NCBI GenBank assembly: GCA_014905635.1
Contig: CM026548.1
Span: 868,001 to 932,000, forward strand
Direction: 5' to 3'
DNA: 64,000 nucleotides
DNA from: Scenedesmus sp. PABB004
Lineage: Eukaryota
The position numbers were made by a program, and so were the translations under genes. The notes beneath the pieces are model-generated. The model saw nothing but the letters and a program-made list of their open reading frames with translations, had not been told where the DNA came from and did not search any database. Numbering within the stretch: the first letter of the stretch is position 1; each line of letters opens with the position of its first letter. This document shows positions 8,906 through 58,936 of the stretch, piece after piece.

Positions 8906-11286
8906 ATGGCGGCCGGCGCGCTCGCGGACGACGCCGCCGCGTTGGCGGCGCTGGCCGCAAAGTTTGGGGACGACAGCGATGACGCCGAGGGCGCGGTGGC
9001 GCCGGGCGCGCCGGCCCCGCCGCGCGGCGCCGGCGCCGGCGGCAGCGGCGGCGGCAGCGGCGGCGTGGCGGCGCCCGGCCCGCCGCCTCCCGACAGCGAC
9101 GAGGACGAGGACTGGGACGAGGACGACGACGCGGACCTGGACGACGACGACGACCTGTACGCGGCGCTGGAGTGGGCGGACGCGCAGGAGGGTGAGCGCT
9201 GACGCCGCTCACCGTCGCACAAGGCAGCGCCGCGCACAGCGCCCGCCGGCCGGCCGGCGCCTCCGCTGACGTTCCCCGCCCGCAGGGCACGCGGCGCGCG
9301 GGCACGGCGCGCTCGCGTTTGCGGCGGCCGCCGCCGGCGGCGCCGGCGGCGCGCCGCCGCGCCCCAACGCCGCCGGCGGCGCGGCGGCGCGGCGCGCGCT
9401 GCAGCCGGCCGCCAACGCGGCGCAGCGGCTGAGCAGCCGCATCCGCGTGCGCGACGACCCGCTCGACGGCCTCGCCCCCGGCGTGCGCCTCGGCGCGGGC
9501 GTCGCGAACGAGCTGCGCGCCGCGGGCGCCAAGGCCGCGGCGGCGCGGCTGCGTGCGGGCGACAAGAGCGACCGCGCGACAGTCGAGCAGGCGCTCGACC
9601 CGCGCACGCGCATGGTGCGCCGCGCACGCGCCGCGCCACACGCGCGTGCGCCGGCCCGCCGCCGCAACCGCCGCGGCCGCCGCCGGCGGCCCTCCCCCCT
9701 CCCCCGCGCGCGGCCGCCGGCCCGCCCGCCGCCGCCGCCGCCGCCGCATCACCGCCCTCGGCCCGCCTCACCGCCCTCGGCCCACCGCCGCGCCGCCCGC
9801 GCCCCGTGCCGCGCCCCGCCGCGCCCGGCCGCAGGTGCTGTTCAAGATGCTGAACCGCGGCGTGTTCAGCGAGATCCACGGCTGCGTGTCGACGGGCAAG
9901 GAGGCCAACGTGTACAGCGCGCTCAGCCCGGCGGGGGAGCACCTGGCCATCAAGGTCTACAAGACCTCCATCCTGGTCTTCAAGGACCGCGACAGGTGGG
10001 CGAGAGGGAGAGCGGGGGAGAGAGTGCGTGTCCGAGCTGTGCGTGCGGGCTGCGCGTGCGTGTGCGGTGGGCGCGCGGGCGGCGCGCTGCTGCGCTGGGT
10101 GGCGGCGCACGCCCGACGGCCCCCCACCACCACACACACACGCGCGCCGCGCCGCGCCGCCCCAGGTACGTCTCCGGTGACTTTCGCTTCCGCTCGGGCT
10201 ACTGCCGCTCCAACCCGCGCAAGATGGTGCAGACCTGGGCCGAGAAGGAGCTGCGCAACCTGGCGCGCCTGCGCGCCGCGGGCGTGCCCGCGCCCGCGCC
10301 GCTGCTGCTGCGCAGCCACGTGCTGGTCATGGAGCTCATCGGCACAGACGGCGTCGCCGCGCCGCGGCTAAAGGTGGGCGCGCGCGCGGGCCGCGCCGCC
10401 GGCGCCGCTGCCGCCGCCGCGCTCTGCCACTGCCGCTGCCACCGCCGAGCGCTGACGCGCGCCGCTGGCGCCGCGCTCGCAGGACGCGGGCCTGCCGCTC
10501 GCCCGGCTGTGCGCCGCGTACGCGCAGCTCGTGCGCATCGTGCGCACGCTCTACCAGGCCTGCCGCCTCGTGCACGCCGACCTCAGCGAGTACAACATAC
10601 TCGTGCACCAGGCGCGACGCGCGCGCTGCGCGCGCCGTGCGCGCCGTGCGCGCCGTGCGGAGAGGGCCTCGCCGCTGCGGGCCTCCCGGCGGCGGCGCGG
10701 CGCTCGCGGCGCGCCCAGCGCTCGGAGCGCAGCGCGCGCACACAGCAGCGCCGGGGGCGGACAGCGCGCGCGGACTGCGGACCGCCCCTGTTAATCCCTC
10801 CCGCCCAGAGCCTCCACGGGCGCGGGAGTTTCAGATGGGGCGCACAGCGACCGGGAAGATTCGCTGACAGCGCCCGACGCCCGTGGGCGTGCTCTGATAG
10901 TAGCTTCCCCACACCTCTTCCTCCCTCCCTCCCTCCCTCCCGCCCTCCCTCCCTCACCCCCTCCCGCACGCACGCATCCAGCGCCCCCCCCCCACCGCCG
11001 CGGCGCCGCGCCCCACCACCCCCGCCCCGCCGCGGCCGCCGTAAACCCTCGTGCCACGCGCCCCAAACCCTGAACCCCCCAGGGCTCGCTCGTGATCATC
11101 GACGTCAGCCAGGCGGTCGACCTGGACCACCCCAAGGCCCTCGACTTCCTGCGCGAGGACTGCGCCCACGTCAACGACTTTTTCAGGCGCGCCGGCGGCG
11201 GCCTCGGCTGTGGCTGTGCTTTGCCGCCGGCCAGCAGCGCAGCGGGGGCCGCGCGCGGGCCCAGCCTGCGCGCAGGGGCAGCGGCA

Positions 11287-11331
<45 letters not shown>

Positions 11332-12416
11332 GCGCCTCGCCCTCACGGCCCCCGCGCCCGCCCCCGCCTGACCCCGCCCCCGCCTGCCCCCGCGCCCGCC
11401 GCGCGCGCGCGCAGGCGCGGCGGCGTGGCGGTGCTGACGCACCGCGAGCTCTTTGATTTTGCTGTCGACCCACACATCAACGCAGACAACGAGGCCCACG
11501 TGCTCGACGCGCTGCAGGAGCGCGCGGCGAGGTGCGGCGCGGCCAAGGTCGATCGTGCGCGGCACACCGCCGGCCGCCCGCACGCCGCGCGCCGCGCGCG
11601 CTCCGCCGCCGGGGGCTGGCGCGACGCCGCCGCGCGCCCGCGCGCCCCGCGCGCGCCCGCCGCCGCAGCCGGCCGCTCGAGCGCGGCGCCGAGGCGGACG
11701 TCGCGGCGGCGGTGTTCCAGCAGGCGTTCATCCCCCGCAAGCTTGACGAGGTGGCACACTATGAGCGCGACCGCGAGCGCCTCGCCGGCGGCGGCGGCAG
11801 CGAGGGCATCTACTACCAGGCAGTGACCGGCATGGCCGCCGACCTCTCCGGCGCGGGCGGCGCGCCCGCGGTGCTGCAGCAGCAGCGCGGCGGCGGGGAG
11901 GCCAGTGGCGCGCCGGGCGCGCCGCAGCAGGCGGCGGCGGCGGCTCAGCAGGCAGGGCAGCAGGAGCAGCTGGAGCAGCAGCGGGAGCAGGAGCAGCAGC
12001 GGGAGCAGGAGCAGCAGCAGCAGCAGCAGCAGCAGGCCGGGCCAGGGCCGGGGCCGGGCGACGGCGGCGGCGGCGGCGCCAACCGCGCGGCCGCGCTCGC
12101 GGCGGCGGCGGCGACCGCGGCGGCGGCGGCGGCCAAGGTCAAGCCCAAGGCCGGCAAGGGCCCCGCCTTCATGGCCTTCCTGCCCAAGGCGGAGGACCAG
12201 CTGCCCCTCGCGGCGGCGCCCGGCGGCGGCAGGGCCGGCAGGAGCCGGGGCGCGGCGTCCGCCGCGAGCGGCGCCGGCGCCGGCGCCGGCGCCGACGTGG
12301 CGGGCAGCAGCGGCTGCGCGCCGCCGGCCGGCGCGGCGGCGCCCGGCGCCGGGGCGGCAGCGGCGGCGGCAGCAGCAGCAGCAGCAGCAGCGACAGCGAC
12401 GACAGCAGCGGCAGCG

Positions 12417-13076: not shown

Positions 13077-15649
13077 ATGGCGGGCGCAGAGCTGGACATC
13101 ACGAGCCTGCCCTCGCTGGAGCGCTTCGACAGCGCGCTGCTGGACAACTACAACCGCGAGATAGGCCCGGCACCCGTGATGGACGAGGCGCAGGCGCCCT
13201 GCGACGACCTCGCGCTGCAGCGCCTCATGGTGCTCAAGCACAGCAGCTACGACGCGCAGGTGCGTCGCAAAGGGCGGTTATAGACGCCCCGGGCGCGCCC
13301 AGCGCGGCGCAGGCGCGCCGGGGCCGCGCCGGGGCCGCGCCGGGCGCCGGCGGCATGCCGACGGCGCGGGGCCGCCCGGCGCGCCACGCGCGCCTGCATG
13401 GACGGCGTGCGCGCGCCGCCGTCGTGCATTGAGTCGCCCGGAGCAGCTTTCGAGCGGCGGCGGCGCCGGCGCGGCGCCGGGCGCGGCCGCAACTGCCGCG
13501 CAACCGCCGCAACCGCCGCGCTGCGCGCGCCGCGCGCGCGCGCCCGCCGCGCGCAGGCCGCCCCCGGCGGCGCGCCCGCCGCGCCGCTGATGCTGACCAA
13601 GCTGGAGGACGTGCCACCGACGCCGGACGCCGCGCTGCGCCGCCGCGGCGCGCACCGCGCGGCCGAGCCCGAGGCGCCGGCGCCGGGCTCGCTGCAGGCC
13701 GCCGCCGCCGCGGCCGCAGCCGCGGCCGTGCCGGGGCTGGACCCGGCCGCCGCGGCGGCGCTGGCGCAGCACTACCTCGCCGCGGCGGCGTACGGCGTCG
13801 AGGGCCTGCCCGGGTCGGACCTGCTGGCCGGCCTGGGGCTCGGCGCCGCGCCGCCGCACGCCGCGCCCGCGTCCCGCACGTCCGCGTTTGCCGCCGCCGC
13901 GGGCGCGCCGTACGACGCCGGCGACGACGCCGGCGGCGACGGCGGCTGGCCCGGCGCCGAGCCGTCGCCCAGCCCCAGCAGCACGAGCGCCGGCAGCAAG
14001 CGGCGCGGCCGCGGCGCCCGCCTGGGGCACATCCTGGCGAGCGAGTGCTACGACGACGACGACGACGACGAAGAGTGGACCATGGACGAGCAGCGCCCGC
14101 GCAGGTGCGCGCCGCGCGCGCTGCCAGCGCGGCGCGGCGCGCGGCGCGCCCCGGCCGGCGCGCGGCGGCCCCGCGCCCACGCCGGTGGCGCCGCCGCGCA
14201 GCGGCACCAAGCGCGCGCGCGGCCGCGGCGCCGGCGGCGCGCGCCACGCGCACGAGGACAGCGACTATGAGGGTGAGAGGGGTTGAGGGGAGAGTGAGGC
14301 GTGCTGGCTCGCGCGCTGCGGCTGCTGCGCGCCACGCCTGCGGGCCAGCGCCGCGCGCGTGCCGCGTGCGGTGCCGAGCCCGCCGCCGCCCTCTGTGCGC
14401 GCAGTCGCGGCGGCGCTGCACGTCACGCCCGACATGGACGAGCAGACCAAGGCGGCGGTGCGGCGCGAGAAGAACCGCGAGGCCGCGCGCAAGTGCAGGC
14501 GCGCCCTGCCGCCGCTCGCGCCGCCCGCCGCGCGACTGGCGCCGCGACACCTGGCGCGACGCCCGCCGCTGCGCGCGTCCCACACGCCGCGCGCGCGGCC
14601 GCCGCCGTGCGCCGGCGCAGGGCCAAGAAGCAGAAGCTGCAGGACGACCTCAAGACCACGGCGCGCGAGCTGTACCGCAAGAACCGCGAGTACTCGGAGC
14701 AGGTGCGTGCGTTACTGACGCGTCAGTTTGAACTCCCCCCGCACGCGTTACGTTTGCCGCCGCCGCGTGGCGAGCCCCGCGCGCCGGCGCCGGCGGCGGC
14801 GGCGGCCCCCGACGCGCCCCCTGTGTCGCGGCCGGCGCGCAGGTGCAGTCGTGGCAGCGCATGTGCGTGCGCGAGGCGGGGCTGCGCCAGGCGGTGCAGC
14901 GCGTGCTCGCCGTGGTGTGGGCGGCGGGCGCGCCGCCGGCGGCGTGCGGCTACTCTGCGCAGGAGATCATCGCCGGCCTGGAGCAGGGTGCGTGCGGCGC
15001 GCCGCGGAGGGCGGGGGGAGGGGCCGCCCGGCGCGCCGCGCGCGCGGGCCCGGGGCACGGCGCCCGCGCGCCGGCCGCCCGAGCTCCCGCGCCGCGCCGC
15101 ACCGCGCCGCGCCTGCTCCGCTCAGGCTCGCTCGGCGTCGACAGCATCATCCGGGCCCTCGCCGCGCACAGCGTGCCGCACAGCGTGCCGCACGGCGTGC
15201 CGCACGGCGACGCCGGCCCGGCGATGGCGCCGGCGCACGGCGCACTCGCGGCGCCGCCGCCGCTCATGCTGCGCGGCGCGTCGCCGCCCGGCGGCGGCGC
15301 CGGCCCCGCGGCCGCGCCGCCGGCGACGCCGCACGGCGGCGCCGGCCTCGCCCGCGTTCGCGCCACGGACAGCTACGACGAGCTCACGCAGCTGCGCGGC
15401 AGCCCCGCCGCGGCGGTGTCGAGCCTCGAGTCCGCGGCGCCGCCGCCCCCGGCGGCCGCCGAGCTCTCCGCCGCCGCCACCGCGGCCGCGGCCGCCGCGC
15501 GGCTGACCGGCATGCGCTCCAGCAGCCTGGGGCTGCAGCACCTGGACCTCGCCAGCGCCATGCAGGGCGCGCCCAGCCTCGCCGCGGTGCTGGCGGGCCT
15601 GGCCGACCTCGCGCCCGGCGCCGGCGCGGGCCTCGAGGGCTGGGCCTGA
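13077..15649 (+). CDS. bZIP transcription factor
   Basis: Basic region RREKNREAARKCR|AKKQ followed by heptads LQDDLKTTARELYRKNREYSEQ|V; about 6 introns; TGA 15647-15649. Confidence 0.85.
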
Positions 15650-16836: not shown

Positions 16837-18393
16837 ATGCAGCTCCACAGTGCCTCAGGCGCGCAGGTGGGCGGCGAGGAGGCGGGGCGGGCTGGCCGCA
16901 CGGCGCCGTCGCCGACGAGCGCTGCTGCCGCGCGCAGGCGCTCCCGTTGCCGCGCCGGCCGGCCTGCGCGCCGCCGCTGCGCGCGGCGGCGGTGCAGGCA
17001 CAGGCGCAGGAGCAGCCTCCGGCCGACGCCGCGGCCTGGCGCGAGCGCGCGGCCGGCGCGCGGCGCGCGGCGCGGCGCGGCGGCCAGGCCGCGCGCGGCG
17101 ACGCGGCGCGGCCGGTCATCGCCGCCAGCCTGGCGCTGCTGCCGGGCTTCGGGCTCGCGGACTTTCGCTCCCTCCTGCGCCTCTGCGCCGCCGCGCGCTA
17201 CGTGCCGGACGCCGAGGCGCTGGCAGCCGCCTTCTATTCCGACACGGGCGGCCTGGAGCGCCTCCTGCCGGCGGCGGCAGAGGTGGGCGCGGCACGCGCG
17301 CGCGTGCGGCCGCCTCGCAGCGCGGCGGCCGCCGACGCGCCCGCGCCCGTGCCGGCCCCCGCGCCCAGGCGGCGCCGCGCGAGGCGGCGCACCTCCTGGC
17401 TGACCTTGGCGCCGTGCTGGCGAGCCCGACCGCGCTCGCGCTGGAGGCGCAGCGCCAGCTCGCGCTGCTGCAGCTGCAGCAGCAGCAGCTGCCCGGCTCT
17501 GGCGCAGCCGCGGAGCTCGCGGCGCTGCAGGCGGCGCTCGAGACGGCCACGCACCACGTGGCGGCCATCCGCCAGCACCGCCTGCTGGCCGGGGAGCTGT
17601 CGGCAATGGGCGGCTACTGGCTGCTGCGCCGCCTGCTGCCGCGGCTCGCGGGCGGCGGGCCGGCGCAGCGCGGCGCCGCGGCGCGCGGCTTCGGCGCGCT
17701 CGCCGCCGACAGGCTTGGCTACCGGGTGCGGCGCGGGCACGGCGCGGGTGGAGGTGGAGGAAGCGGGGCAGCGCTTGAGCAGGCGGGGGCCGGAGGAGGG
17801 GGGGGTGCCCGGGGGCGCGCCGCGCGGCGGCCCCCGCCGCTCCGCGCGTCGCCGCCGCCACGCGAGCGCATTGCCCCCGCCGCAGGTGCTCGACCCCGAG
17901 GACGCTGACCTGCTGGTGCGGCTGCTGGCCCAGCACCTGCCCGCGTGGCGCGCCGGCGAGCTCGCGGCGGCGCTGTCCGCCGCGCTGCCGTGCCTCGGCG
18001 GCGTGCCGCCGTCGCGCGGCGACGATCTCGCGCTGCTCTTTGCTGCCGCGGGGGCCGCCGCGGGCGGCATGCAGCCGAGAGAGGCGGCGCGGCTGCTGCT
18101 GGTGCTGTGTCAGCTGCCTGGCTACGCGCCAGACCCCAAGGTGGGCTGCGCCGGTGGCCGCGGCGCGCCACGCGCGGCGGCCGAGCGGGGGCGCGCCGCG
18201 CCCAGCGTCGCCGCCGCCCGCCCGCCTGCCCGCCCAGGTCGCGCAGGCGCTGCTGGACGCCGCGCTGGCGCCGCCGCTGGCCGGCAATGCGCGGTCGCTG
18301 TACGGCCTGCTGTCGGCGGCGGCGGAGCTGGGCGCCGCGCCGCGGCCGGAGCAGCTCTTGCGCGTGCAGGGCGTGCTGCAGGGCCAGCGCTGA
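16837..18393 (+). CDS. Probable organelle-targeted helical-repeat (degenerate OPR-like) protein
   Basis: Transit-peptide-like start; repeats FGLADFRSLLRLCAAARYVP, MQPREAARLLLVLCQLPGYAP, ARSLYGLLSAAAELGAAP; 4 GT-AG introns. Confidence 0.55.
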
Positions 18394-18521: not shown

Positions 18522-21041
18522 TCATGGCTGCTGCTGCTCCGCGGGCGCCGCTGGCTCGGCCGGCGCGGGCGCCGCTGGCCCGGCCGGCGCCGGCGCCGCT
18601 GACTCGGCCGCCGGCGCGGGCGCGCTCGCCTCCGCCGCGGTGCCGCCGCCGCCGCCGCCCGCGGCCGGGAGCTTGAGCTTCAGCTTGTGCTTGTGCTGCC
18701 CCGCCTCGCCGCCGCCGCCGCCGCCGGGCTCGGCCGCGCCGCCGAGGCCCGGCGGCGCGTCCACCGCCATCGGCTCCACGCCGGGCAGCTGCGGCGAGCC
18801 CGGCGGCGGCGCCGCGGCCGCGCCGCCGCCGCTGGCACCGCCGCCGCCGCCGGGGCTGTCGGCCTCCGCGCCGTGCCCGTCTGCGCGCCACGCCGCAATC
18901 TCCCGCTCGTACCTGCGCGGCGGGGGCGGCAACAGGAGCGTGAGCGGCGGGGACGTGGGGGCGGCGGGCGGGGCACCGCGCCGCCGCGCCGCAGCGCCGC
19001 CGCGCGCGCCTGGCCCTGTCGTCGCCGTGCCGCGCGAGGTAGGGCGCGCGCTCGGCCTCGCTCGCGCGCCCCCACGCCTCGCCGAGCGCGCGCGAGACGT
19101 CCTGCGGCACCGCCGACGGGCCGAGCTTGGCCTTCATGCCCGCCCACTGCTCGGCGGCGTAGTAGTTGAACGCGCTCTGTGCGGGTGCCACGGGGGCGGC
19201 CACGGGGGCGGTGAGGGGCCGCCGTGCGCGGACGCGGGCGCGGCGGGCGCGGGCGCGGGCGCGGGCGACGCGCGCGCACCTTGGGCGCCTTCGGCCGCGC
19301 GGCCGCCGCGGGGTCCGCCGCGCCGCCGGGCGCCGCCGCCGACTTGCGGCGCTTCACGGCCTTCCCGCCGTCGCCGCCGCCGCCGTCCAGCCCCGCCGCG
19401 CCGGCCTCGCGCTTGACGGCGGCGCCGCCGCCGGCGCCGCCGGCCTCGCCGGCCTCGCCGCCGCGGCCGGCGCCGCGGCCGCCGCCGCCGGCCGCCGCCG
19501 CCGCCGCCACGGCGGCGGGGCAATAGAGGATGCCGCTGAAGTGCTGGCCGCCGATGGAGAGGCTCACAAAGTAGCCGCAGTCGAAGCGCGCGTCCACGCG
19601 CCCCGACACCGCCTGGCCCGTGAGGTCGCGCTTGTTCTTGCCCGACTTGACGAAGCCCACGAGGTCGGGCGGCCCGCCCGGCGCGCCGCCGGACCCGCCC
19701 GCGGCGGCGCGCTTGCGCGGCCCGCGCGGGCCGCGCGGCCGCGGGCCGCCCGGCGGCGCCGAGCCGGGCTCGCCGGCGCCTGCGCCAGGGCCGGCGCCGG
19801 CCGCGCCGGCCGCGCCGGCCGCGCCGGCCGCGCCAGCCGCGCCGCCGCCGCCGCCGCCGTCGCCGTCGCCGTCCGCCGCGCCGCCGCCGTCCGCCACGGC
19901 GCCGCCGCCGGCCGCGCGCGGCGGCACCGCGTCGCCGTCGCCGGCGTCGCCGCCGCCGCCGGACGGCGGCTCCGGCTCGTCGTCCGAGTACATCTGGCCC
20001 GCCAGGAACGCGGCGAGGCCGCTGCCGCGCTTGCTGCGCGCGGGGCGGGGGTCGCCGACGCCCGCAATCGCGGCGGCGTCGACCTCGCTGCCGCGCGCCG
20101 CGGCCGAGAGCTCGGGCGGCTCGCGCAGCGGCGTCCCGCCCGCGGCGTGGAGGTACGTCTGCTCAAAGTGCCAGAGCAGCGTGGAGTAGATGCGGCGCAG
20201 CGCGTGCATGTTGACCTTGGTGGCGAAGCCAAAGGGCTTGAGCACCTCCTGCAAACGGCGCGGCAGGCGCGGCAGCGCGAGCGGGCGCGGTCGGCGGCAC
20301 GCGGCAGCGGGCGGGCGCGGTCGGCGGCACGCAGCAGCGGGCGGGCGCGGTCGGCGCCGCGCGGCGGGCGGGGGCGGGGGCGGGCGGGCGGGCGGCGTCG
20401 CGGCGGCGCTGCCAGCGCTGCTGCTCTGTTCTGCCCTGCCCGCACCTGCCACTTGCCGCCCGCCGCGACCGCGTGCACGCCGCCGAGGCCCGCGACAGTG
20501 ACATAGAGCAGGTGAAGGTCCAGGTTGTGACCCGACACTGCAGTGCGTGGCGCGGCGCGAGGAGCGTGCGCGTGGGCGCGGGGCGTGCGCGTGGGCGCGG
20601 GGCGCGCGCGTGGGCGCGGGGCGTGCGCGGGGCGTGCGCGGGGCGGCTGCCCTCGCTGCCCCCAGGCGTCCGGCGCTGCCGCTGCGGGCGCGCGCCGCTG
20701 CCCACGCGCGGTGCAGTGCGCCGCTGCCGCCCGCCGCCGCCGCTGCCGCGCGCCGCGCCGCGCCACGCGGTCGCCGCCGCACCGATGGGCGTGCGGTGCT
20801 TGGAGGGCCGGTACTTCTTGGGGGCGCAGGTCTGCAGCTGGGCGTTGAGGTCCTGCACCAGCGCCGTGAAGAGGCCGGCGTCGGCGCAGACCTGCTCCTG
20901 GCTCGCCAGCGCCGCCGGGTACGTCGTCAGCCCCCCCTCGCTGCCCAGCACGTGCTTGCGCGCCTCGGCGCCGGCCGCCGGCGCCGCGGGCGCGGGCGGG
21001 GGCGCCTCGGCGGGCGCGGGGGCGGGCTCGGGGTCGGCCAT
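18522..21041 (-). CDS. ARID-HMG box protein (plant HMGB9/10/11/15 type)
   Basis: ARID (LDLHLLYVTVAGLGG...KWQ|EV...LRRIYSTLLWHFE), linker GQAVSGRVDARFDCGYFVSL, HMG box (RPKAPK|SAFNYY...VSRALGEAW...ERAPY...DRAR|YERE). Confidence 0.92.
20282..20357. repeat. Intronic 30-bp tandem repeat, about 2.5 copies
   Basis: cgggcgcggtcggcggcacgcggcagcggg repeated within an ARID-HMG intron. Confidence 0.75.
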
Positions 21042-23819: not shown

Positions 23820-26800
23820 TCAAAACACGAGCGCGCCGGCGCCGCCGCCCGCCGCCGCGCCGGGCCCCGCGCCCGCCCCCGCCGCGTCGGCAGTCGGCGG
23901 CGCGGGCGGCGCCGCCGCGGCGGCCTTGGCCGCCGACGCGCGCGCCTTGACCGCCTTGACCTTTGCCACGAGGCCCGCCGTCAGCACGAGCGCGCCCGGC
24001 GCGCCCTGGCGCAGCAGGTCCACCTCCACCTGCAGGCCGTGCACGCAAGGGCGCGGGGCGATGCGCGCCGCTGAGGGGCAACCCGGCGCGGCGGCGCGGA
24101 GCGGGGCGCGCTCGCCCGAGCGCATGCGGGCGCGCGCGCGCGCCTGGCCGAAGAGGCGAAGGTTGCGCAGGCACAGCCGGCACACCGCGTCCTCCTGGCG
24201 GTCGGTGCCCACCTGCGCGCGCGAGGCAGCGCGGCGGAACGCCGCGTCGGCGGCGGCGGCCGACGCGGTGCGCGCCGCCGCCGCGGCGCCGGCCGCGCGC
24301 CGCCCGCGGCGCCAGCGGCGGCGGGCCGCAAACGCGCGCGCGCGGGCGCGGCGCGGCGCGGCGCACGAGCTTGATGGCGCGCCAGCCGTGCGCCGCGGGG
24401 TTGCTCTGCTGCGTGACGTGGACCTCGAATGGCTCGTTGACGCTCGAGCGCGCGTGGATCGGCGTGTACGGCCCGCCGCCGTCCGGCGCGGTCAGCGTCG
24501 CCCAGTTGCGCATGCGCCAGTAGCCGCTGCGCCGGTGGCCATGGCTGAACAGGTAGCGCGAAAAGTTGAGCATCTTGACGTTGGGCGGCAGCGTGACCTC
24601 GATCCAGGGCTGCGGTGGCGGGCCGCCGGCGCGTCAGCCGCGCGCGGCGGCGTTCCGCGCCGCGCCCGCGGCGCGCCGCCACGCCCGGCCGCCTCTGGCC
24701 CGCCGCGCGCCGCCTCTGGCCCGCCGCGCTCCGGCCGCGGCGCACCATGGGGTCGGCGCTGTCGTTGGTCTCAAAGTACGCGTCCGGGTCGGCCGAGAGC
24801 ACATGCGCGGGCACGCCCTCGCTCACGCCCGACACGCGCACCGAGCACAGCGGCGCGACCTGCGAGCGCGCGCGCGCGCGGCGCGGGCGGCGGCGTCGGC
24901 GCGGCGCGCGCCCGCACCCGCGCGCAGCAGCGCCGCCGGTTCCGCGCCGCGCCTCCCGCGCCCGCCCCGCGCCGCGCGGCGCACGCACGTGCTGCCAGAT
25001 CTCCCCCAGCTCCAGCGTGAGCGTGCGGCAGCCGCCCGGCAGGCCGTAGCGCTCGTCGCAGACGTAGCTGTCGCGCGGCGGCGGGGTCTGCCGCGCGAGC
25101 GGCAGCCCCGGGCGGTCCATGGCGGTCAGGCGCGTCATCGCGCCGCGCAGCAGCAGCTCCTGCGGCAGCTGCGGGTGCTCGGCGAGGCTGCCGATCGTCT
25201 GGTTGTCCAGGTAGGGCAGGCGGACCTGCGGGGTTTGGAGAGGTGGTTGAGGCGGTGTTTGAAACACGAAAGGAACAGCGGCGAGAGCCGCGCGCGCGCG
25301 GGCCCGGCGCAGCGTGCGCACTCGCCTCGCTGCAGATCGCCTCAGCGTCGGCCGCGTCGGTCTGTGTCGTCGCGAGGTAGCGCAGCACGAAGCGCAGCAC
25401 CTGCCGCGCGTTTGCGTGCGAGGGGAGAGGGAGGGGGAGGGGCGAGAGTGAGACAGAGGGGGTGGGCGTGCGCAGGCCGCGTGCCGCCGCCGCCGCAGCG
25501 CGGCCCCGCCAGCACCACGCGTCCACGCCCGACCTGCTGCTCGCAGTGCACCAGCAGCGCCGGGTGGCGCAGGATGGCCAGCACCTGCGCAGGTGGGGAC
25601 GGGAGCGGGAGGGACACGCGCGCGCGCGCGAGCAGGGCGGCGTGTCAGCCGGGCGCGGCCGCGGCCGCCGCGCCGCAGCGCCCGGAGGAGTCTCCGCGCG
25701 CGCCTGCGCGGGGCCGAGGCCGGCGACGTCGGCGTCAAAGATGAACTGAAAGCCTGCCGGGGGCGGCGGCGGCACGTGAGAGTCGGCCGACCTCCACGCG
25801 CGGACGGGTGCGAGGGGCGGGGGCCGCGCCGCGCGGCGGCGGCGGCGGCGATGGCGGCGGCGGCGGCGGCGCGCCACCGCACCCTGGGCCGCGAGCTCGA
25901 TGCAGGTCTGCTGGATGTCGTCGATGGCATACTTTGCGGCGCGGCGCAGGTAGCTGCGCGGCGGGCGCGTGCGGCGCGTGTGTGAATGCAGGTGGTCGCG
26001 CGGCGGGCGAGGGTCGGCGGCAGACGCCGCGGCGCTGGCTGGGCAGGCGACGCAGGGTGCGCGGCGGCGCAGGGGCGCGCGCCTGATGCAGTTGTCGACC
26101 GAGAGGCGGCTGGACACAAAGTCCAGGCAGAAGCTGCGCGGGGGCGTGGCGCGGGCGGGCGGCCGTGAGCCGCGCGGCGGCGGCGGCGGCGCCGCGGCCG
26201 CGCGGCGGCGGGCATCGGCAGGGCCGCGCGCCTGTCGACGGTCGGCACGAGCAGCTGGCGCGCGAGGGAGAGGAGCGGGAGGACGTTGTCGTCGTTGATG
26301 GGGATTGTGTCGCTGTAAAAGTAATCCACGAGCGCCGGCCACACCTGTGCGCACGTGGCGCGGTGCCGCGGCGGCCGTTGGCCGGCTGCGTCCCGGCAGC
26401 GCGCCGCGCCGGGCTCGGGCCCGGGCCCCGGCCGCCCCGGCGCGCCGCGGCGGCCCGCGGCGGCGCGCGCGCGCCTCCTCGGACTTGTCGAGGTGCAGCT
26501 CGATCACGCGCGTGCTGCTCTCGCTGAAGCCGCCGGCGAGGGCGCGGTAGAAGAACTCCGAGCGCCGGGCCACGAGCAGCGAGTGCAGGCGCCACTGCCC
26601 GGACGCCGTCTCCACGAGCAGGTCGGCGAACTCGCCGCTGCCGACGCGGTCCTGGAACCTGCGGCGCGCGTGCGCGGCGGAGCGGGGCGCGGCGCGCGGC
26701 GGCGTCGGTGGCCTCGCCGCCGGCCGCTGGTCGTGCTGCGGCATGCTGCGGCAGCTTGCTCGGCCAGCGGCAGCTGGCCCGGCGGCGGCGGCGCGCGGCG

Positions 26801-26937
26801 CCGGGCGACGACACAGTGGGCGCTGTGTCGCCCGGCTCGAACGCCGTCGCCGCCGCGCACCTGCTGAATCCGCTGAGCGCGGCCTCGCCGTAGACGCGCT
26901 CGAGACCCTGGCGGTCCTCCGGCCGCGGGCGCTCCAT
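23820..26937 (-). CDS. BTB/POZ-BACK protein with C-terminal discoidin/galactose-binding-like domain
   Basis: FADLLV...LHSLLVARRSEFFYRALAGGFSES, LVDYFYSDTI, LSVDNCI, VRLPYL, YFETND...PWIEV...MRNW; 12 introns, 6 with GC donors. Confidence 0.88.
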
Positions 26938-37026: not shown

Positions 37027-37074
<48 letters not shown>

Positions 37075-37638
37075 CGCCGCCGCTCGACGCGTGCTGCGAC
37101 CCGGGGCGGCTCGCGCACGGCGGCGACGGCGGCGCCGCGGCGCGGCGGTACATGTTCCGCCTGCTCCGCGACGCCGCGGCGCTGCTGGCGCGGCGCTGGG
37201 GCACGGTGGCGCCCGCGCCGCGGAGCATGACCGCAGCGATGACCCTCGTGGCGCTGCCGGCGGGCGGGCCGCTGCCCCCGGCCGGCAGCGCGACCTCGGA
37301 TGACGCCAAGTACGTCCAGGTGAGCGGGGCGGCATCGTGGCGGCGGCGGGCGGTGGCCCGCCGGCGGCGGCCGGCCCATGGCCTGGCCAGGGCGGGCCGC
37401 GGCAGCCCGCGCTGAGCGCCCCGCGCGGCGGCCGGGCGCGCCGCGCCGCGCCGCGTCGCGTGCAGGACCTGCTGCACTTCCGCCACGCCGTCGAGGCGCC
37501 GGTCAAGTGCGTGGACGGGGCGCTGTGCGTCCGCATCAGCGCGCACGTCTACAACGAGCTGGCTGACTACGAGGCCCTGGCGGCCGCGGTCGAGGCGATC
37601 GCGGCGGGCCCCGCCGCCGAGGAGGCGGCGCACGCCGA

Positions 37639-37670
<32 letters not shown>

Positions 37671-37675
37671 CGTGA
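35412..37675 (+). CDS. Class V PLP-dependent enzyme (L-cysteine desulfhydrase / isopenicillin-N epimerase / Egt2-like)
   Basis: FVNHGAFGA, PNATTGLN, DAVTSNTALVLP, VLVDGAHALG, ADYFVANCHKWL, VRISAHVYN; 6 introns. Confidence 0.92.
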
Positions 37676-44138: not shown

Positions 44139-46395
44139 TCAGCCCATGCCGGCGCTCGCGGCGGGCGCCGGCCCGACCGGCGCAAAGGGCAGCCGCGGCG
44201 CCTGCTTCGCCTTGCGCTGCTGCGCGCCGCGCCTGCCCGCGCCGCGCGCCTCCTCCAGCCACTGCAGCTGCGCCCGGTGCGAGCGGCGCGTGAGCGGCGG
44301 CCGGCGAGCGAGGCCGCGCCTCGCGGCGGGCCGCAGCGCCCGCGGCGGCGCGCCGCGGCTCACCCCGCCTGCATTGACCGCGACCGCGCCGAGCGCCGCC
44401 GCCGCGGTGGCCGTGCCGACGACCGCCCTGACCGCCGAGCCCCACCACGACCGGCGCTTGCGCGGCGCGAGGCAGCGCGGCACCACGGGCACCGTCGCGT
44501 GCGCCTCCGCCTTGCGCGCGACTGCGCGGACGGTGGGCAGGCGCTCGGCGCGGCGGCGGCGGGACGCGGCCGCGGCCGCAGCGCCTGCCCCCGAAGCAGC
44601 AGCAGCAGCGCAGCCTCTGCCGCGCCTCTGCCGCGCCGCGCACCTCCCTCCTGGAGGATGTGCACGCGCGACGCGTTGCTGCTGAGGAAGGCGGCCTCGG
44701 CGACGCCGCTGCTGCGCAGCGCGCGCGACACGTCCCACGACGTGCGCAGGCTGGCCGCGGCGGCGCCGGGCGCCTGCTGGCGCAGGTGCGCGACGGCGTC
44801 CCACCCCGCGGCCACGGGCGGCAGTTCGGCCAGCGCGTCGTCGTCGACGGGCTCGGAGTAGCGCGCGACGCCGCCGGGGCGCCGCCGCGCTCCCCCTCGC
44901 CCGGCGCGCCCGCCACCGACGCGCTCAGCGAGGCGTCGGCGGCCCTGCCGTGCGCGGCGGCGCGCGCGTTGTGAGCTGGCCGGTGGTGCAAGCTCGCGGC
45001 TGCCGCTGCTGCGGAGCAGGCGGTGAGCTCCCCCCCCCCCCCCCCCCCCCCCCCGCGCCGCCCCTCTCCCCCCGCGCCCCGCGGCCCCACCTGTCCAGGT
45101 GCAGGAACGGCCGCGCCGCGCGCTTGGCGCTCAGCTGCTGCATGATTTGCTGCGCGTGGCTCAGCTGCCCCCGCCAGCTGGCCTCCGGCCCCTCGGTCGA
45201 GCTGCGCTGCGCCGAGAGGCGCGCCGCCGTGGCGCGCGCGTCGCCGAGCGCCTGCTGCGTGCTGGTGGGCCCCGCCGGGCCGCCGCCCGACTGGTCGCTG
45301 TCCAGGTCGCCGCTGGCGGCGCCGGGGTGCTGCGGCGGCCGCGGCGCGCGCACGGGCGTGAGCTTGGCGCCGCCGCCGCTGCTGCTCCGGCCCGACCCGC
45401 CGCCGCTGACGGGGCGCCGTGCCGCGCGCGACTCCCAGTCGGCGATGCCGCTCGCGGCGCGGCCGCCGCCGTCGCCGGCCTTGCTCTGCGTGCGCGAGCT
45501 CGCCGCGTGGCTCTGCGGCGGCGGCGGCGGCGGCGCCGGGGTCGGTCGCGCGTGCGCGCTCCGCAGCCGCCGCGGCTCAGCGCGCCGCGCGCCGCCGCCG
45601 CACCTGCACCCACACGCAGCTCGCGCGTGCCACGTCGGCGGCGGCGCTCGCCGGCGCGTCCATGGCGTCCTGGGGCGCCTCCACCGCGGCGGCGCCCTCC
45701 TTGAGCTCGCACCAGTCCAGAATCTCCTCGATGAGGCCCTGCGACGTTCAAACGCGCGCGCGACAGCTCTGCGCGCGTCGCCCCGCGCGCGCGCGCCCGC
45801 GCCGCCGGCGGACCGCGCGGCTGCCCCCGGCGTTGCTGCTGCTGCTCCTGCGGCGCCGCGCCGCGCGCGCGCCGCGGCGCCGCACCTGCACGCTGTACGT
45901 CTTGACGGCGCCTTGGTGCTCGCAGCACGTCTCGATCACCTTGCGCCGCAGCGGGTCCACGCCGTTGATCAGCTCCGCCTGCACCACCAGCAGAGCGTCG
46001 TGCTGGGACGCCGCCGCAGGCACGTCGGGCCGCGCCGCGCGGCGGGCGGCTGCCAGGCGGCGCGGCCGGCGGCGGCGGCGCGCCGCACCTTGCGCGCCTC
46101 GTCGCCGCAGACCTTGGCCTCGCGCACCTGGCCCTCCAGGTAGCCGATGCTGTCCCTGAGAGACCCGGGAGCGCGCCGGGCGGGCGGTTCGCGGGGCGGC
46201 TGGCGCGCGGCGCCCCAACCGACCGCGCGCCCGCAGCGGCGCCCCCAACCGACCGCGCGGCGCCGCGCGCCTGAGCTGCAGCAGCACGTCCGCGTCGGCC
46301 GCCACCAGACCCCGGTTCTGCAGCGCTGCATCTGTGAGGCGGTAGAAGTAAGAGGCCTTGCGCAGAGCGGCGTTGATGCCCGAGTCGGCGGCCAT
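44139..46395 (-). CDS. Hypothetical protein with helical N-terminus and C-terminal hydrophobic segment
   Basis: MAADSGINAALRKASYFYRLTD...; spliceable exons; WWGSAVRAVVGTATAAAALGAVAV near the end; ends SAGMG*. Confidence 0.6.
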
Positions 46396-53049: not shown

Positions 53050-55431
53050 ATGGCGCCCCGCCGGCGCAGCAGCCGGCTGCCGCTGTGCCTGCTCCTTGCG
53101 GTCCTGGAGCTGCGGTGGGCGCCGGCGACGGCGGCGGCGCAGCAGCAGCAGACGGCCGCGGGCGCCGGCGGCGAAGCGGGCGGCCAGGCGGCGCTCGAGC
53201 GCGACGCGGTGCAGCTGCGGCGCCTGCTCGAGGCGCAGCCCGGCAACGCCATGGCGCACCTGCAGCTGGCCACGACGCTGCACCGGCTGAACCACCTCGC
53301 GCCCGACGGCGGGCAGCGCCTCAACGAGGCGGAGCGCGCGTACCGGTGCGCCGCGCCGCCGCGGCGGCGGCGCCGCTCCGCCGCGGGCGGCGCCCCTGCG
53401 CGGGCGGCGGCCGGCCACCGCCAGCGCGCCCACGCCGCGCCCGCGCGCGCGCGCGCCCGCCCGCGCCGCAGGGCGGCGCTCGACGGCCTGGCCGGCGACG
53501 GCGCGCTCGCGGCGCACGTGCGGGGCAACCTCGGCGCGCTGCTGCTCAGCGGGCCCGACCCCGCCGCGGCGATCGTGGAGCTGCGCGCCGCGCTCGACGG
53601 CGCGGAGCGCGCGGGCCTGCCGCCGGGCGAGCGCGGCGCGGTGCTGTTTAACCTGGGCAAGGGCCTCACCACGCTGGGCGAGCTCGACGCCGCCGACGAC
53701 GCGTACGCCCGTGCCGCGGCCGTGGCGCGCGGCGCCGACTTCGCGTCGTACGCCAAGGCCGTCGCCGCGCCGCGCGCGCTGCCCGACGCCGACGCGGCCG
53801 CCGCGGCGCGCGTCGCGGCGGCGGCGCGCCGCGTCTTCGCCGCGCGCCCGGGGCTCGCCTGGCTCGCCGAGGCGGCGCCCGACGGCGACGGCGAGGCCGG
53901 CGCGGGCGGCGGCGAGGAGGAGGGCATGGCGTGGATCGAGGCGTCGTCGCCGGTGGAGGCGGTGTGGCTCCACTTCGCGCTGCACAAGCACCACCACGCC
54001 GCCAAGTGCGCCGCGGCGCGCACGAGCGCCGCCGCCGCGTCGCGCCGCCCCGCCCCGCCCCGCCCCGCCCCGCCCACCCCGTCCCGCGCTGCCGCGCGGC
54101 CGCGCCGCGCAGGCGCTACGCCCGCGCCTGGCCCTACCTCGCGCTCGGCAACCGGCTCATGTCGGCGCTCGCGCCGCACGACGCGGCGCGCGAGGCGGCT
54201 AACTACGCGCACGTGCGGTCCATCTTTGTGCCGCCGCTGCCGAGCAGCGGCCTGCCCGACGAGAGCGCCGTGTTCATCGTCGGCATGCCCCGCTCCGGCA
54301 GCACGCTCGTGGAGCAGATCCTCGCGAGTCACTCGCAGGCACGCGCTGCGCCGCGCTGCGCCGCGCTGCGCCGCGCTGCATCGTGCTGTGCTGCGCTGCG
54401 CTGCGCTGTGAGCGCTGTGCGCGCTGCCGACGGCGGCCGCCGCGGCGCAGGTCTTTGCCGCGGGCGAGGACACCGCGCTCGCGCCGCTCACGCCGGGGCT
54501 CAACAAGGCGCTCGCGGCGCCCGGCGCCGACGCGGCGGCGTCGCTCGCGCGCTACGGGCGGCGCTACCTGAAGCGCATGTCCGCGCGCGTGCCGCGCGGC
54601 GACGGCTCGCGCTGGCCCACACCCGCCGACGGCCCCGCGCGCGTCGCCGACAAGATGCTGCGCAACCTCTGGCTCGTGGGGTACGTCGAGATGCTGCTCC
54701 CGCGGTCGTGCGTGCTGCACGTCGCGCGGCACCCGCTCGACGTCGCGCTCTCGTGCTTCAGCCAGCCCTTTGGCTACTCCGCGAGCTCGCTCTCGTGGGC
54801 GTGGGACCTGACAGACATCGCGGCGCAGCTGCGCATGGCGTGGGGCCTCGCGGAGCACTGGGACGCCCACTTCCCGGGCCGCGTCCACACGGTGCTCTAC
54901 GAGGAGCTCGTCGCGCACCCGCGCGCCGTCGCGGCGGAGCTGCTCGCCGCGTGCGGCCTGCCCTGGGAGGAGGGCGTGCTCGCGTTCCAGCACACGCGCC
55001 GCCCCGTGCACACCGCGAGCGTGGTGCAGGTGCGCCAGCCGCTCTACGCCTCGTCGGTCGGGCGCTGGCGCGACTACGGCGAGCAGCTGCGCGGCCTGGC
55101 GGAGGAGCTCGCGCCGCTGGTCGAGCGCTACGAGGCGCGGCTCGCCGCGCGCCTCGCGGCGCGTGCTGCCGCCGAGCCGGGCGGCGGCGCCGAGCCGGGC
55201 GGCGGCGGCGACGAAGCGGGCGGCGGCGGTAAAGACGAGCTCTGCGCCGCCGCGCAGCCGCGTTGCAGCCGGCTCTCAGGGCCAGGCCCGCGCGCTGATG
55301 CGCAGCCCCCGCCGACGTGTCCCCCAGCCCCGGCAGTGTCGCCACATTGCCCCCCCCCCCCTCCCGCCCGTTGCCTCGTGCGTTGGCGGCAGCCGCAGCC
55401 CGCTCAGGGGCGCGTCAGCCCTGCAGCCTGA
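53050..55431 (+). CDS. Signal peptide plus TPR plus sulfotransferase; probably ends at KDEL (55231-55242)
   Basis: TPR helices (AVLFNLGKGLTTLGELDAADDAYARA); PAPS motif VFIVGMPRSGSTLVEQILASH; DKM..N, RHPLDVALSCF, YEELV, TASVVQVRQPLY..SVGRW. Confidence 0.92.
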
Positions 55432-55549: not shown

Positions 55550-56753
55550 TCAGCGCGGCGCCTGGTCGTGGAAGATCTCGTCCACCAGCGTGGCCAGCGC
55601 TATCACAAACGCAGCGTCGACGCCGGGCTCAATCGTCACAAAATACTTGCCCGCGTCCTTCGCCACCATGCTCCTGCGAGCGCCGCGCGTTTGGCGGCGG
55701 CGGTGGTCAGGGGCGGGCGGGGCAGGGGCTGCCCGCGCGGCGCGGCGGCGCGGCGGCGCGGCGGCGCACGGCGCACATGAGGAACGCGGTCTTGCTGGCG
55801 AAGCGCGACTCCTGCGCCGCCGCGGCGGGCGCGGCGGGCATGCTGCGCGTTGTGCGCGGCGCGCGCGGCGCGCGGCCCGCGCGCGGGCACGCTGCGCGCT
55901 GCGCGTACGCGCCTTGTGCACGGTCGCGATCGCGGCGTGCCCGCCGCCGGGGCGTCCGCGCAGCTGCACGATCGTGAACTTCTTGGCGCGCAGGTCGCCC
56001 TGGATGACGTAGTCCTCGTTGTCGTCGCCGTCGTTGAGGAAGACCTTGACGCCTGGCAGCGGGCGGGGCGGCGCGGCGCGGCGGGCGCACGCGTGTGCCA
56101 CACGAACCCGCCCGGCTCAGCGCGCGCGGCGGCGGTCGCTGGCTGGCCGCCGCGGCGCGGCGCCGCCTCCCCGCGCACCGACGCCGAGGCCCATCGACGG
56201 CCGCACGGACGCGATGAGCTTGCGGTCCGCCGCGCGCGCGACGAGCCACGTGCCGCGCAGGGACGGGACCTTGCGCTCGATGAGCACGCAGGGATGACCG
56301 TAGGCATCGAACAACGCGCGCGGAGCGGTCAGCGCGCCGTACCCGGCGGCCTGCAGGCGAAAGTACGGCGTGCCTTTCTCGTCGGTGATGGAAAAGTTGT
56401 CGGTCGTGCGGTACATGCCGAGCTGCGTGGCGCGGCGCGGTGGTCCACCGCCACCGGGGGGGGGGGGCGCCGCACACGTGGCGGCGCGCGACCCCCCGGC
56501 GCAGAGGGCGTGCCGGGCACGGCACGCCCAGGGGGGCACCGCTGCGACCCGGCCGGGCGGCGCCAGCCGCCGGCGCACCTGCTCCTGCATTATGAGCACC
56601 GTCTGCGTCGGCAGGCAGAACCGCGGGTCCACCAGCGCTGCGCGCGGCGGGCGGGCGGCACCGGTGACGTTGCTGCTGCGCCGCGACCACGCGCCGCCGC
56701 CGCCGAAGGCGCGACACCACGACGCGCTCACGCATGCTGAGGACGGCGGCCAT
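55550..56753 (-). CDS. LURP-one-related (Tubby C-2/LOR) protein
   Basis: LVDPRFCLP, DNFSITDEKGTPYFR, RALFDAYGHP, DYVIQGDLRAKKFTI, YFVTIEPGVDAAFVIAL. Confidence 0.9.
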
Positions 56754-57005
56754 GGCGAGGGCGGGCGGTTGGAGCTTGCGCAGGCCCACGTGCGCGGGGG
56801 GCTGGGAGCGTGGCGGCGAGGGCTGCTCGCGCGAGCGCAGCCTGCTGCCGAGACGCGACCGGCCGATGAGTGCGGCGGCTCTCGAGCGCGGCGGACGCGC
56901 GGGCGCAGCAGGCGGTCGCAGGCCGCGGCGCCGCAAACCGATCGAGCTGACGCCGAGGTGAGCGGGTGCGCCGGCGCGCACGGGGCCCCCCGCACGTGGC
57001 TCTAC

Positions 57006-58936
57006 CTAGGTGCCCAGCACAGCCCAGCAAGCGCCCACCGCCATATGGTACAAGGCACCCGCCTCAGCTGGCCGCCGCGCTGGTGGCGGTGGCGTCGCCG
57101 CCGCGGCGGCGCCGCCGGCGCCTAAGCTGCCGCCCGCAGCGCTCGACGCCGCGTCGCCCCCGCCTCGGGCAGCGCCGGCCGCTGCGCCGCTGCTGCTGCT
57201 GCTCACGCCCGGCGCCGGCGCGCCGCTGGCGGGCGCCGGCGCCGCGCCCGCGCCCGCGCCCGGGCCGGCAGCGCCCGCCGCGGGCGCCACGTGGTCGCCG
57301 AGCGCGGTGCCCGGGCGGCTGCCGAGCGGCGTCGGCGCGGCCGTGCTGGTCGGGCTGAGCACGCCCTGCCCGCCGGTGAGGTCCGAGAGGTGCCGGAAGC
57401 GCCTGAAGTCGCTGCGGAAGATGCGGCCGCACCCGAGCAGCTGCTCCGGAAGCTCCTCGAGGCCGTTGCCCTGCGCCGCGGCGGCGGGCGGCGGGCGCGC
57501 GTCGGCGGGCCGCGCGCCGCCGCCCGCCGCCGCCGCCGGCGGCCACCACTGCCCACCGCCGCCCGCCGCCGCTCCCCGGCCGCCGCCGCCGCCTGCCCGC
57601 CGCCGCCCGCTGGCGCCCGCCGCCGCTGCCGCCTGCCCGCCGCGCCGCGCCGCGCCGCGGGCGCGCCTGTATGACAAACGCGTTGTCCCACACGACCGTG
57701 GGCAGGCGGTCGTGGTAGCTCCAGAGCGCCTTGCGCGCGAGGAAGGCGTACGCGTGGACGTCGAGGTCGACCTCCAGGTAGTTGGGGCCGACATAAAACA
57801 TCTGGCGGCGGCGGCGGCGGCGGACGCCAGGGTTCAGGGTTGAGGGTTCACGGCCCGGGGCGGGCGGGCGGGTTAACGGCGTTTTGCCGGGGCGGCGGCC
57901 CCACGCGGTTGGCCGCAGGCGCCGCCTGCGCAGGGCGCTCCGCGTTTGCGATCGCCGTGCAGCAGCACGGCGCTGCTCCAGAGCGCCCTGCGCGGCGCGG
58001 CGCGGGCCGGCGGCGGCGCGGGCCGCCGCGCGCGCCTGCTGCGGGCGCGTGAGCACGGGCTTCTCGTTGTAGTTGAGCAGCAGCTTGTACTCGGTGCTGC
58101 TCAGCGGCGCCGCGCGCGCCCACTCCTCCAGGTTGGCCACGCTGCGGCGCGGCGCCCAGGGCCGGCGGCGCGTGAGGCGCGGCGCGGGCAGCGGCGAGGC
58201 GGCGGCCGGGCCGGCACCCGCCGCCGCTGCCGCCCAGGGTGCCCCTGCCGCACCGCGGGATCATCTTGAGCCGGTCGCGCGTGGGCGAGCCGTCCGCCTC
58301 GCGCCCGTTGCTCACGAAGCGCTGCAGCAGCCCCAGCGCGGCGGGGTTGTCGCAGCGGTCGGGGTCAAAGTCCTCGCTGCGCGGCGGCGGCGGCGGCGGC
58401 GGTCAGTGGCGGCGGCGCCAGCGTTTCGCCCGTCAGCCCTGCTGCGGCGCGCAGCTCATGGCCCGCGCGCGCGCACTGCCGCCGCCCGGGGCGGCCCCTG
58501 GCGCCGCACGCACGCACACACGCGCGCATGCGCGCCCACCTGAGTGCAAAGTAGTACACGATGCTCTGCCCCGGGCCGTCGTTGGCGCCCCAGAACGCGG
58601 CGGGGTAGTCTGGGAGCTGCACGTTCATCACCAGCAGTGGCGGCAGCACGACCTCCGGCCCGCCGCCCACGGGGCTGCGGCACACGACGGGCGGGCCTGC
58701 CGCGCGCGGCGCGCGGCGAAAGTTGGGCCCCGCCGCGCCGCCCCGCGCGGCCGCCGGCACGGCCGCCGGCGCCGCACCCGCGGGCGGCAGAGCAAACTGC
58801 TTGGCGACGTGGAAGGCCTTGGCGTCCGTGGCAAAGAGGTCCATCGCGACGAGGCGGTAAAAGGCCTTCCCGCTCGGCTGCTTCACCTTGGTGCGCATGT
58901 AGTCGGCGCTGCGGATCTGCGGCGGGCCGAGAGAGC

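Follow-up and report, generated by a model that had tools for sequence, protein, structure and literature searches.

Abundant GC-AG introns predicted in a 64-kb window of the GC-rich green alga Scenedesmus sp. PABB004

Introduction

Does an alga with an extremely GC-rich genome begin a large share of its introns with GC instead of GT, or does its base composition only give this impression? The question was raised by a stretch of 64,000 nucleotides (nt) from Scenedesmus sp. PABB004 (assembly GCA_014905635.1, contig CM026548.1, positions 868,001 to 932,000), which is called the window here and whose first letter is position 1. A preliminary description of the window, obtained by manual splicing, held that about 22 of roughly 120 introns have GC-AG boundaries, far above the share of about 1% usual in eukaryotes. 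In this study, these introns were followed up by a homology test that ignores the splice dinucleotides and by a gene finder written for this genome. The results confirmed, on sequence inference and homology, that GC-AG introns are abundant in the window. We believe that they are most probably ordinary U2-type spliceosomal introns with C in place of T at the second donor position (+2).

GT-AG introns are reported to account for 97.9-98.7% of introns per kingdom, and GC-AG introns for about 1.2% in plants. The assembly of PABB004 is listed with 39.8 Mb, a guanine plus cytosine (G+C) content of 78.5% and 7,092 genes (PMC12571836). Its relatives Tetradesmus obliquus (about 57%), Monoraphidium neglectum (65%) and Raphidocelis subcapitata (71.5%) have lower G+C contents. 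The G+C content of the window is 77-81% throughout, and stop codons are rare everywhere. A total of 288 stop-free stretches of at least 150 amino acids were found over all six frames, and open frames are therefore uninformative here. Codon-position periodicity revealed numerous short exons with non-periodic stretches of approximately 100-250 nt between them.

Results

Boundaries of the GC introns and homology test

Sixteen GC introns had been listed one by one, and all sixteen carry an exonic AG, GC at the intron start and AG at the intron end. The intron begins with GCGCG in 14 of them, the exceptions being GCAAG (27474) and GCACG (54339). Both points agree with the preliminary description, according to which every GC donor follows exonic AG and most read GCGCG. 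Six further introns, in a gene with a BTB domain, likewise have GC at the start and AG at the end. The length of 17 of these 22 introns is not divisible by three, and their removal is therefore needed to keep the frame.

Profile hidden Markov models were built for four proteins of the window (a RIO1 kinase, an ARMT1-like phosphatase, a CDPK and a class-V aminotransferase) from homologues of other organisms, and the proteins of PABB004 itself were left out. The RIO1 profile contained 120 sequences of the 415 homologues found, and the ARMT1-like profile contained 23, with the deposited PABB004 protein P0122 excluded. The CDPK profile was made from 35 of 150 sequences, chosen by match place and length, and the aminotransferase profile from 34 of the same 150. 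At each junction, every in-frame pair of donor and acceptor within about 60 nt (45-75 nt) was enumerated with any dinucleotides, which gave 3,000-6,000 candidates, and the joined peptides were scored against the profile.

The results showed that the best GC-AG pair scored higher than the best GT-AG pair at all nine listed GC introns tested, with margins of 7.6-51.1 bits (Table 1). In seven of the nine, the claimed pair was the blind optimum or within 0.7 bit of it. The same procedure was applied to 16 GT junctions as a control. At all 16, the GT-AG pair was in the top tie set or at most 1.2 bits away from it, and it was ahead of the best GC-AG alternative by approximately 3-42 bits. GC donors thus made up 9 of the 25 homology-checked junctions. 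One of the two listed RIO1 introns illustrates what separates the two kinds of candidates. Splicing from 10612 to 11082 gave a gapless profile match over the catalytic loop and the metal-binding motif. The best GT-AG pair there (127.5 bits) uses donor 10603, which lies 9 nt upstream in the same frame, and loses three residues that lie after the catalytic loop and before the IDVSQ motif.

The PABB004 RIO1 model was missing from the 120 RIO1 homologues listed of the 415, perhaps because of the length window. As a source of orthologous donors in relatives, 80 loci from a metagenome scan with a 17-sequence RIO1 alignment were considered; all are distant, with no more than 64% identity even in their best segments, and they were not used. 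At the 80 metagenome loci, the span of the match was about the length of the matched protein, so that they look intron-poor.

Gene finder and tally over the window

The gene finder was a hidden Markov model. Coding sequence was represented by three-periodic second-order states, with shadow states covering the opposite strand; the intron states tracked phase, and donors and acceptors were described by position matrices. A single-strand version predicted genes across genes of the opposite strand and was replaced by the version with shadow states. The composition model and the flank matrices were retrained on the finder's own predictions made with GT donors only. Since GT donors alone entered the training, the finder is conservative towards GC.

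When only GT donors were permitted, 136 introns were predicted in 25 genes. When GC was permitted at a prior of 0.08, the number was 139 (again in 25 predicted genes), 31 of them with GC donors, and the score increased by 161 nats. At a prior of 0.02, 24 of 141 introns had GC donors. The 31 GC donors comprised 23 that follow an exonic AG and 8 that do not. The noise level was determined by permitting a decoy dinucleotide beside GC; decoys were used 4-11 times, with a gain between -4 and +27 nats. The eight GC donors without AG are close to this level, which leaves an estimate of about 23 of 139 introns (16.5%), in agreement with the roughly 22 of 120 first described. Decoys were also put in the place of GC at a prior of 0.15. 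They were used 11-29 times and gained 16-90 nats, compared with 172.6 nats for GC. This control was found to be confounded, since such decoys patch the real GC introns, and decoys beside GC were used instead.

The finder recovered all 25 introns that were already known through homology or annotation; the same genes had seeded the first training round. Among the sixteen listed introns, 14 were recovered exactly and a fifteenth by its donor only (57666), and the GC donor 14499 was replaced by the GT donor 14493. Forbidding GC donors within 300 nt cost 28-36 nats at three BTB introns. In the GT-only run, the finder recovered all 16 known GT introns and none of the 9 known GC introns. It substituted nearby in-frame GT donors for the GC ones, so that residues were deleted from or inserted into conserved domains.

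Donor context and dependence on exonic AG

The predicted GT donors have the consensus (C/A)(A)G/GTGCGC, where the slash marks the exon-intron boundary, and the acceptors read CGCAG/G. The GC donors read AG/GCGCG(C/G), which is the GT consensus with C for T. The GC donors in AG context carry G at +3 with a frequency of 0.91, C at +4 with 0.87 and G at +5 with 0.96, and the corresponding values of the GT donors are 0.96, 0.70 and 0.94. The acceptor context is unusually rigid: 98% of predicted introns have C at -3, and 82% have G at -4. Positions -10 to -5 of the acceptor are a mixture of C and G, and a pyrimidine tract is not evident there.

Exonic AG precedes all nine validated GC donors and 9 of the 16 validated GT donors (Fisher p 0.027). 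Among predictions, it precedes 23 of 31 GC donors and just 39 of 108 GT donors (Fisher p 2e-4); GT donors thus often lack AG, as had been described. Because the donor matrix rewards AG, the comparison of predictions is biased, and the exonic positions were removed in a separate run. There, AG still preceded 17 of 29 GC donors, compared with 36 of 111 GT donors. The background is 3.0% (343 of 11,559 GC dinucleotides in gene spans), which gives a binomial p of 4e-19 for 17 of 29. Together with the nine validated donors, this bears out a requirement of GC donors for the exonic AG. Among donors in AG context, there are 23 GC and 39 GT, so that about one in three (~37%) is GC; among donors without AG, the GC share is at most at the false-positive level.

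The motif AGGCGCG occurs 75 times on both strands, and 18 of these copies are predicted donors. The predicted introns average about 87% G+C. GC and GT introns have median lengths of 116 and 122 nt, respectively, and show no difference in either length or G+C content. Within the window, GC donors were not significantly clustered in particular genes (permutation p 0.35).

Individual introns

The coordinates and scores of the GC introns are collected in Table 1.

Table 1. GC-donor introns of the window. The slash marks the exon-intron boundary. Claimed, Blind best and Best GT-AG are profile scores in bits; Margin is best GC-AG minus best GT-AG in bits; Cost is the loss of gene-finder score in nats without GC donors. 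P0001 and P0122 are deposited NCBI protein models that use the intron.
Gene	Position	Strand	Donor	Claimed	Blind best	Best GT-AG	Margin	Cost	Remarks
RIO1 kinase	10612-11082	+	cag/GCGCGAC	141.9	tie set	127.5	14.4	0.2	recovered by finder
RIO1 kinase	11187-11414	+	cag/GCGCGCC	112.8	113.5	61.7	51.1	12.5	recovered by finder
Listed intron, ambiguous	14499-14620	+	AG/GC						ends in AG
ARMT1-like phosphatase	27474-27571	+	cag/GCAAGGG	36.6	42.8	29.0	7.6	12.5	P0122; weak homology in N-terminal part
ARMT1-like phosphatase	28455-28563	+	cag/GCGCGCG	114.8	tie set	106.9	7.9		P0122
ARMT1-like phosphatase	28973-29142	+	aag/GCGCGCG	95.8	rank 1 of 4864	78.1	17.7		P0122
CDPK	32243-32381	+	gag/GCGCGGC	107.7	rank 1	75.4	32.3		P0001
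CDPK	33344-33521	+	cag/GCGCGCG	51.5	54.1	41.6	11.8		P0001; rival GC-AG pair 33362-33569, 53.4 bits
Class-V aminotransferase	35753-35895	+	cag/GCGCGGC	96.3	tie set	80.2	16.1		P0001
Class-V aminotransferase	35963-36096	+	gag/GCGCGCG	67.8	68.4	44.2	23.6		P0001
TPR/sulfotransferase	54339-54450	+	cag/GCACGCG					4.8	exact finder recovery
HMG-box gene	18913-19009	-	cag/GCGCGCG					5.0	exact finder recovery
BTB gene	24030-24143	-	cag/GCGCGCG					4.2	
BTB gene	25226-25325	-	gag/GCGAGTG					11.4	
BTB gene	25585-25703	-	cag/GCGCGCG					7.0	
BTB gene	25954-26082	-	cag/GCGCGCG					29.9	
BTB gene	26134-26231	-	cag/GCGCGCG					36.2	
BTB gene, BTB domain	26345-26474	-	gag/GCGCGCG					27.7	
Unnamed gene	46156-46270	-	cag/GCGCGCG					4.6	exact finder recovery
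LURP-one-related gene	55812-55912	-	aag/GCGCGTA					4.2	exact finder recovery
EDR2_C gene	57471-57666	-	cag/GCGCGCC						finder shares donor 57666 and final acceptor 57471
EDR2_C gene	57802-58035	-	cag/GCGCGCG					1.9	exact finder recovery; weak

The BTB gene (23823-26937, minus strand) has six GC donors among 12 predicted introns, the same number as first described, and its exons match Pfam BTB. The exons around the intron at 26345-26474 match Pfam BTB positions 7-56 and 66-98 and are contiguous in the domain within about one residue. At the HMG-box gene, the Pfam HMG_box match stops at the claimed donor of 18913-19009. At 54339, the finder without the exonic term chose the GC donor 54324 instead. 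The EDR2_C gene has a supported GC donor at 57666 with two candidate internal structures: the finder places a 36-nt exon (57557-57592, minus strand) within 57471-57666, and the frame is kept either way.

Two positions have tandem donors, in which GTGCA(C/G) lies 9 nt (10603) or 6 nt (14493) upstream of an in-frame AG/GCGCG donor. The pairs 10603/10612 and 14493/14499 could give isoforms that differ by three or two codons, respectively. Two unlisted AG/GC donors were also predicted on the plus strand, both weakly. One belongs to 16882-16997 (gag/GCGGGGC; 0.4 nats without GC donors), and the other to 63364-63417 (cag/GCGCAGC; 1.9 nats), an intron of just 54 nt.

Gene content and deposited gene models

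Pfam matches on the periodic frames identified the RIO1 kinase, an HMG-box protein, a cytidine deaminase, the ARMT1-like phosphatase, the CDPK with EF hands, the class-V aminotransferase, an LSM protein, a TPR/sulfotransferase protein, a LURP-one-related protein, an EDR2_C protein and Det1. By these matches, the predicted genes are a green-lineage set. An Rfam scan of the window gave no family at the gathering score, and no small nuclear RNA (snRNA) gene was found there.

Two NCBI proteins of the same organism map to the window. The protein named CPK24 (P0001, 1066 amino acids) maps residue for residue to 31004-37672, and the damage-control phosphatase (P0122, 393 amino acids) maps exactly to 27355-29265. 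Their models hold 20 introns. Seven of these are GC-AG, and they are exactly the intervals previously described as GC introns in these genes. The expectation that standard predictors would mis-annotate such genes therefore held only in part: the GT-only finder missed all nine known GC introns, whereas the NCBI models use all seven of theirs.

In P0001, the CDPK gene and the class-V aminotransferase gene that follows it are joined by a GT-AG 'intron' of 1,674 nt (33725-35398, plus strand). The donor of this 'intron' overlaps with the TGA at which the CDPK frame naturally stops. Separate proteins are the best homologues of P0001, one of 518 amino acids covering residues 17-539 and one of 447 amino acids covering residues 609-1043, and the gene finder predicted two genes where P0001 has one. 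P0001 is probably an annotation fusion of the two genes.

Discussion

The data indicate that about one in six introns in the window has a GC donor. At a probability of about 0.85, we believe that these are ordinary U2-type spliceosomal introns with C for T at donor position +2. Their donors read GCGCG, GCAAG, GCACG or GCGAG, and comparison of these letters with the U12 consensus as quoted in PMC3033335 revealed no ATATCC-like donor of the U12 type. Strong pressure towards G and C, by mutation bias or biased gene conversion, would turn the donor T into C. The C at +2 would be accepted if the donor otherwise pairs well with the splicing machinery, chiefly through A at -2 and G at -1, and G at +3 and +5 would also keep the GC donor recognisable. 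The dependence on exonic AG would fit compensation through pairing with U1. Even in AG context, GC and GT donors stand at 23 to 39, so that T is more frequent than in the base composition of the introns, which suggests that weak selection for T at +2 persists.

Because GC is found nearly everywhere at 80% G+C, manual splicing could have produced GC boundaries by chance, with the true introns using GT or other boundaries. GC makes up 25% of the dinucleotides in introns, compared with 2.5% for GT, the rarity of stops leaves many frames open, decoys in the place of GC were also used, and the 8 of 31 GC donors without AG resemble noise. However, the blind optimum falls on AG/GC...AG in seven of nine junctions and never favours GT-AG there, and it falls on GT-AG in all 16 controls. 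The gain of 161-173 nats for GC exceeds that of any decoy, decoys add little beside GC, and AG precedes most GC donors even when the model does not see the exon. We consider such an artefact very improbable. A sizeable share of the GC donors could also compete with a nearby in-frame GT as alternative 5' splice sites, with isoforms a few codons apart, in which case the GC share would be less than one sixth. In-frame GT donors do exist at 10603, at 14493 and at 28461, 6 nt downstream of 28455, and the ab initio score barely separates GT from GC at 10612. The homology penalty for GT is nevertheless 14.4 bits at 10603 and 7.9 bits at 28461, and at most GC introns the nearest in-frame GT-AG costs 16-51 bits. 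Mixed usage on this scale is improbable, though less so than an artefact.

The GC donors are very uniform (AG/GCGCGCG), as would be expected if they came from an inserted family of intron-generating elements (introners). Such elements are also known from the two algae whose published GC-AG shares are highest, which counts for this origin. Against it, when the 139 predicted introns were all compared with one another, the only matches were out of register and of low complexity, at about 75-80% identity, with one GC-GC pair among the 25 best pairs and no end-to-end family in this one window. GC and GT introns are alike in length and G+C content, and GCGC after the first dinucleotide is common to GT donors as well. 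Introners are the least probable of these origins, at a few chances in a hundred. A bolder possibility, unlikely but to be taken more seriously than the preceding three, is that +2 has become nearly neutral once A at -2 and G at -1 are present, and that the weight of splice-site reading has shifted to the exon end and to +3 and +5. The altered part of the machinery may be U1 snRNA, one of its modifications, U1C or the hand-over between U5 and U6. If this were true, the most GC-rich sequenced green alga would offer a natural titration series for selection on donor positions, and possibly a case of altered U1 or U6. A canonical U1 (AUACUUACCUG) and a U6 with ACAGAGA, if present, would favour plain mutation-selection balance. 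Aureococcus and the two Micromonas strains are reported to have a canonical U1 5' end (PMC3033335). Variants of U1 or U6 in PABB004 are unlikely by analogy, because the U1 end is canonical in Aureococcus and Micromonas pusilla despite their high GC-AG shares.

Several observations weigh against reading the GC sites as ordinary U2-type introns, or limit how far this reading extends. The homology test reached only 9 of the approximately 23 GC introns, and the other 13 of the 22 described were assessed by coding statistics. Among the nine, the introns at 27474 and 33344 are the weaker cases, which are not at the blind optimum and lie in poorly conserved segments. Outside the three BTB introns, forbidding GC donors cost a modest 0.2-12.5 nats, and the ab initio support is weak at several sites. 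At 10612, the in-frame GT 9 nt upstream is rejected by homology alone, and at 14499 the finder favours the GT donor 6 nt upstream (14493), which is in frame and uses the same acceptor. Twenty-three copies of AGGCGCG are found on the sense strand of predicted genes and are not predicted donors, so that a donor is not defined by this motif alone. The agreement with the deposited NCBI models is possibly non-independent and was not taken as proof. The frequency was obtained from a single window of 64 kb, and the genome has 39.8 Mb. We infer splicing in vivo at the GC sites from frame, homology and coding statistics, and general knowledge of how 5' splice sites are recognised underlies both the proposed pairing with U1 and the proposed mutational cause. 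Finally, G+C content alone is no predictor: Micromonas RCC299 is reported with 64.1% G+C and just 2.7% GC-AG introns (PMC3033335).

Abundant GC-AG introns in GC-rich algae have been in print since 2011, and PABB004 adds a further case. Iwata and Gotoh (2011) reported GC-AG shares of 39.6% in Aureococcus anophagefferens, 22.2% in Micromonas pusilla CCMP1545 and 7.7% in Chlorella sp., and linked the abundance to G+C content (PMC3033335). As far as these figures go, PABB004 is like these algae in having a very GC-rich nuclear genome, a GC-AG share at least ten-fold above 1% and AG acceptors that are kept, and two of the three are green algae, as it is. Unlike them, PABB004 belongs to the Chlorophyceae (Sphaeropleales) and has a still higher G+C content (78.5%), and its share comes from one window rather than from a genome-wide count. 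Both the window and the genome pass the level of about 65% G+C of GC-rich genomes with many GC-AG introns, and the share, 23-31 of 139 predicted introns, is many-fold above 1-2%. The early link to extreme base composition is in keeping with these published cases, and about one sixth is likewise far above the 1.2% of plants.

The same relation is described outside the green algae. For Emiliania huxleyi, Feldmesser et al. (2014) gave a GC-AG share of 56% among 241 curated junctions, confirmed nine GC junctions by reverse transcription PCR (RT-PCR) and found that GT-only gene models mispredicted genes (PMC4028052). By that account, Emiliania and PABB004 are alike in GC donors tied to high G+C content, in canonical acceptors and in the failure of GT-only models. 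Emiliania is a haptophyte, and most of its junctions (56-60%) have GC donors by RT-PCR-backed data, whereas GC is a minority donor (~17%), predicted from sequence, in PABB004. Pelagophytes (Aureococcus strains and Pelagomonas calceolata) are reported with approximately 14-17% GC-AG introns (bioRxiv 10.1101/2024.10.30.620910), a share nearly equal to that of PABB004 and also with G+C content as the stated cause. They are stramenopiles with 0.1-0.9 introns per gene, and PABB004 has approximately 5-6 per gene (139 introns in 25 predicted genes). In the literature searched, apart from per-species supplementary tables, no report of GC-AG introns in Scenedesmus, Sphaeropleales or Chlorophyceae was found; the shares of other green algae may be given in such supplements (PMC3033335, Additional file 1; PMC7072748 and PMC6310983, files by species).

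Compared with the GC-AG introns that make up about 1% in animals and plants, those of PABB004 are alike in their predicted U2 type and their strong remaining consensus, with AG at nine of nine validated donors. Generally, GC donors carry compensating signals at other donor positions. The PABB004 introns differ in being about 15 times more common and in having the intronic consensus GCGCG rather than the GCAAGT type. The only donor that resembles the classic form is that at 27474 (GCAAGG).

The finding is mildly interesting for the evolution of splice sites and leaves the knowledge of splicing itself unchanged. The gene models of PABB004 and of other very GC-rich algae would be wrong wherever a predictor insists on GT. 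The strict exonic AG gives a simple rule, AG/GCGCG, which could be used as a prior in gene finders. Overall, the window would extend the known relation between base composition and donor choice to a chlorophycean alga, whose G+C content is the highest so far.

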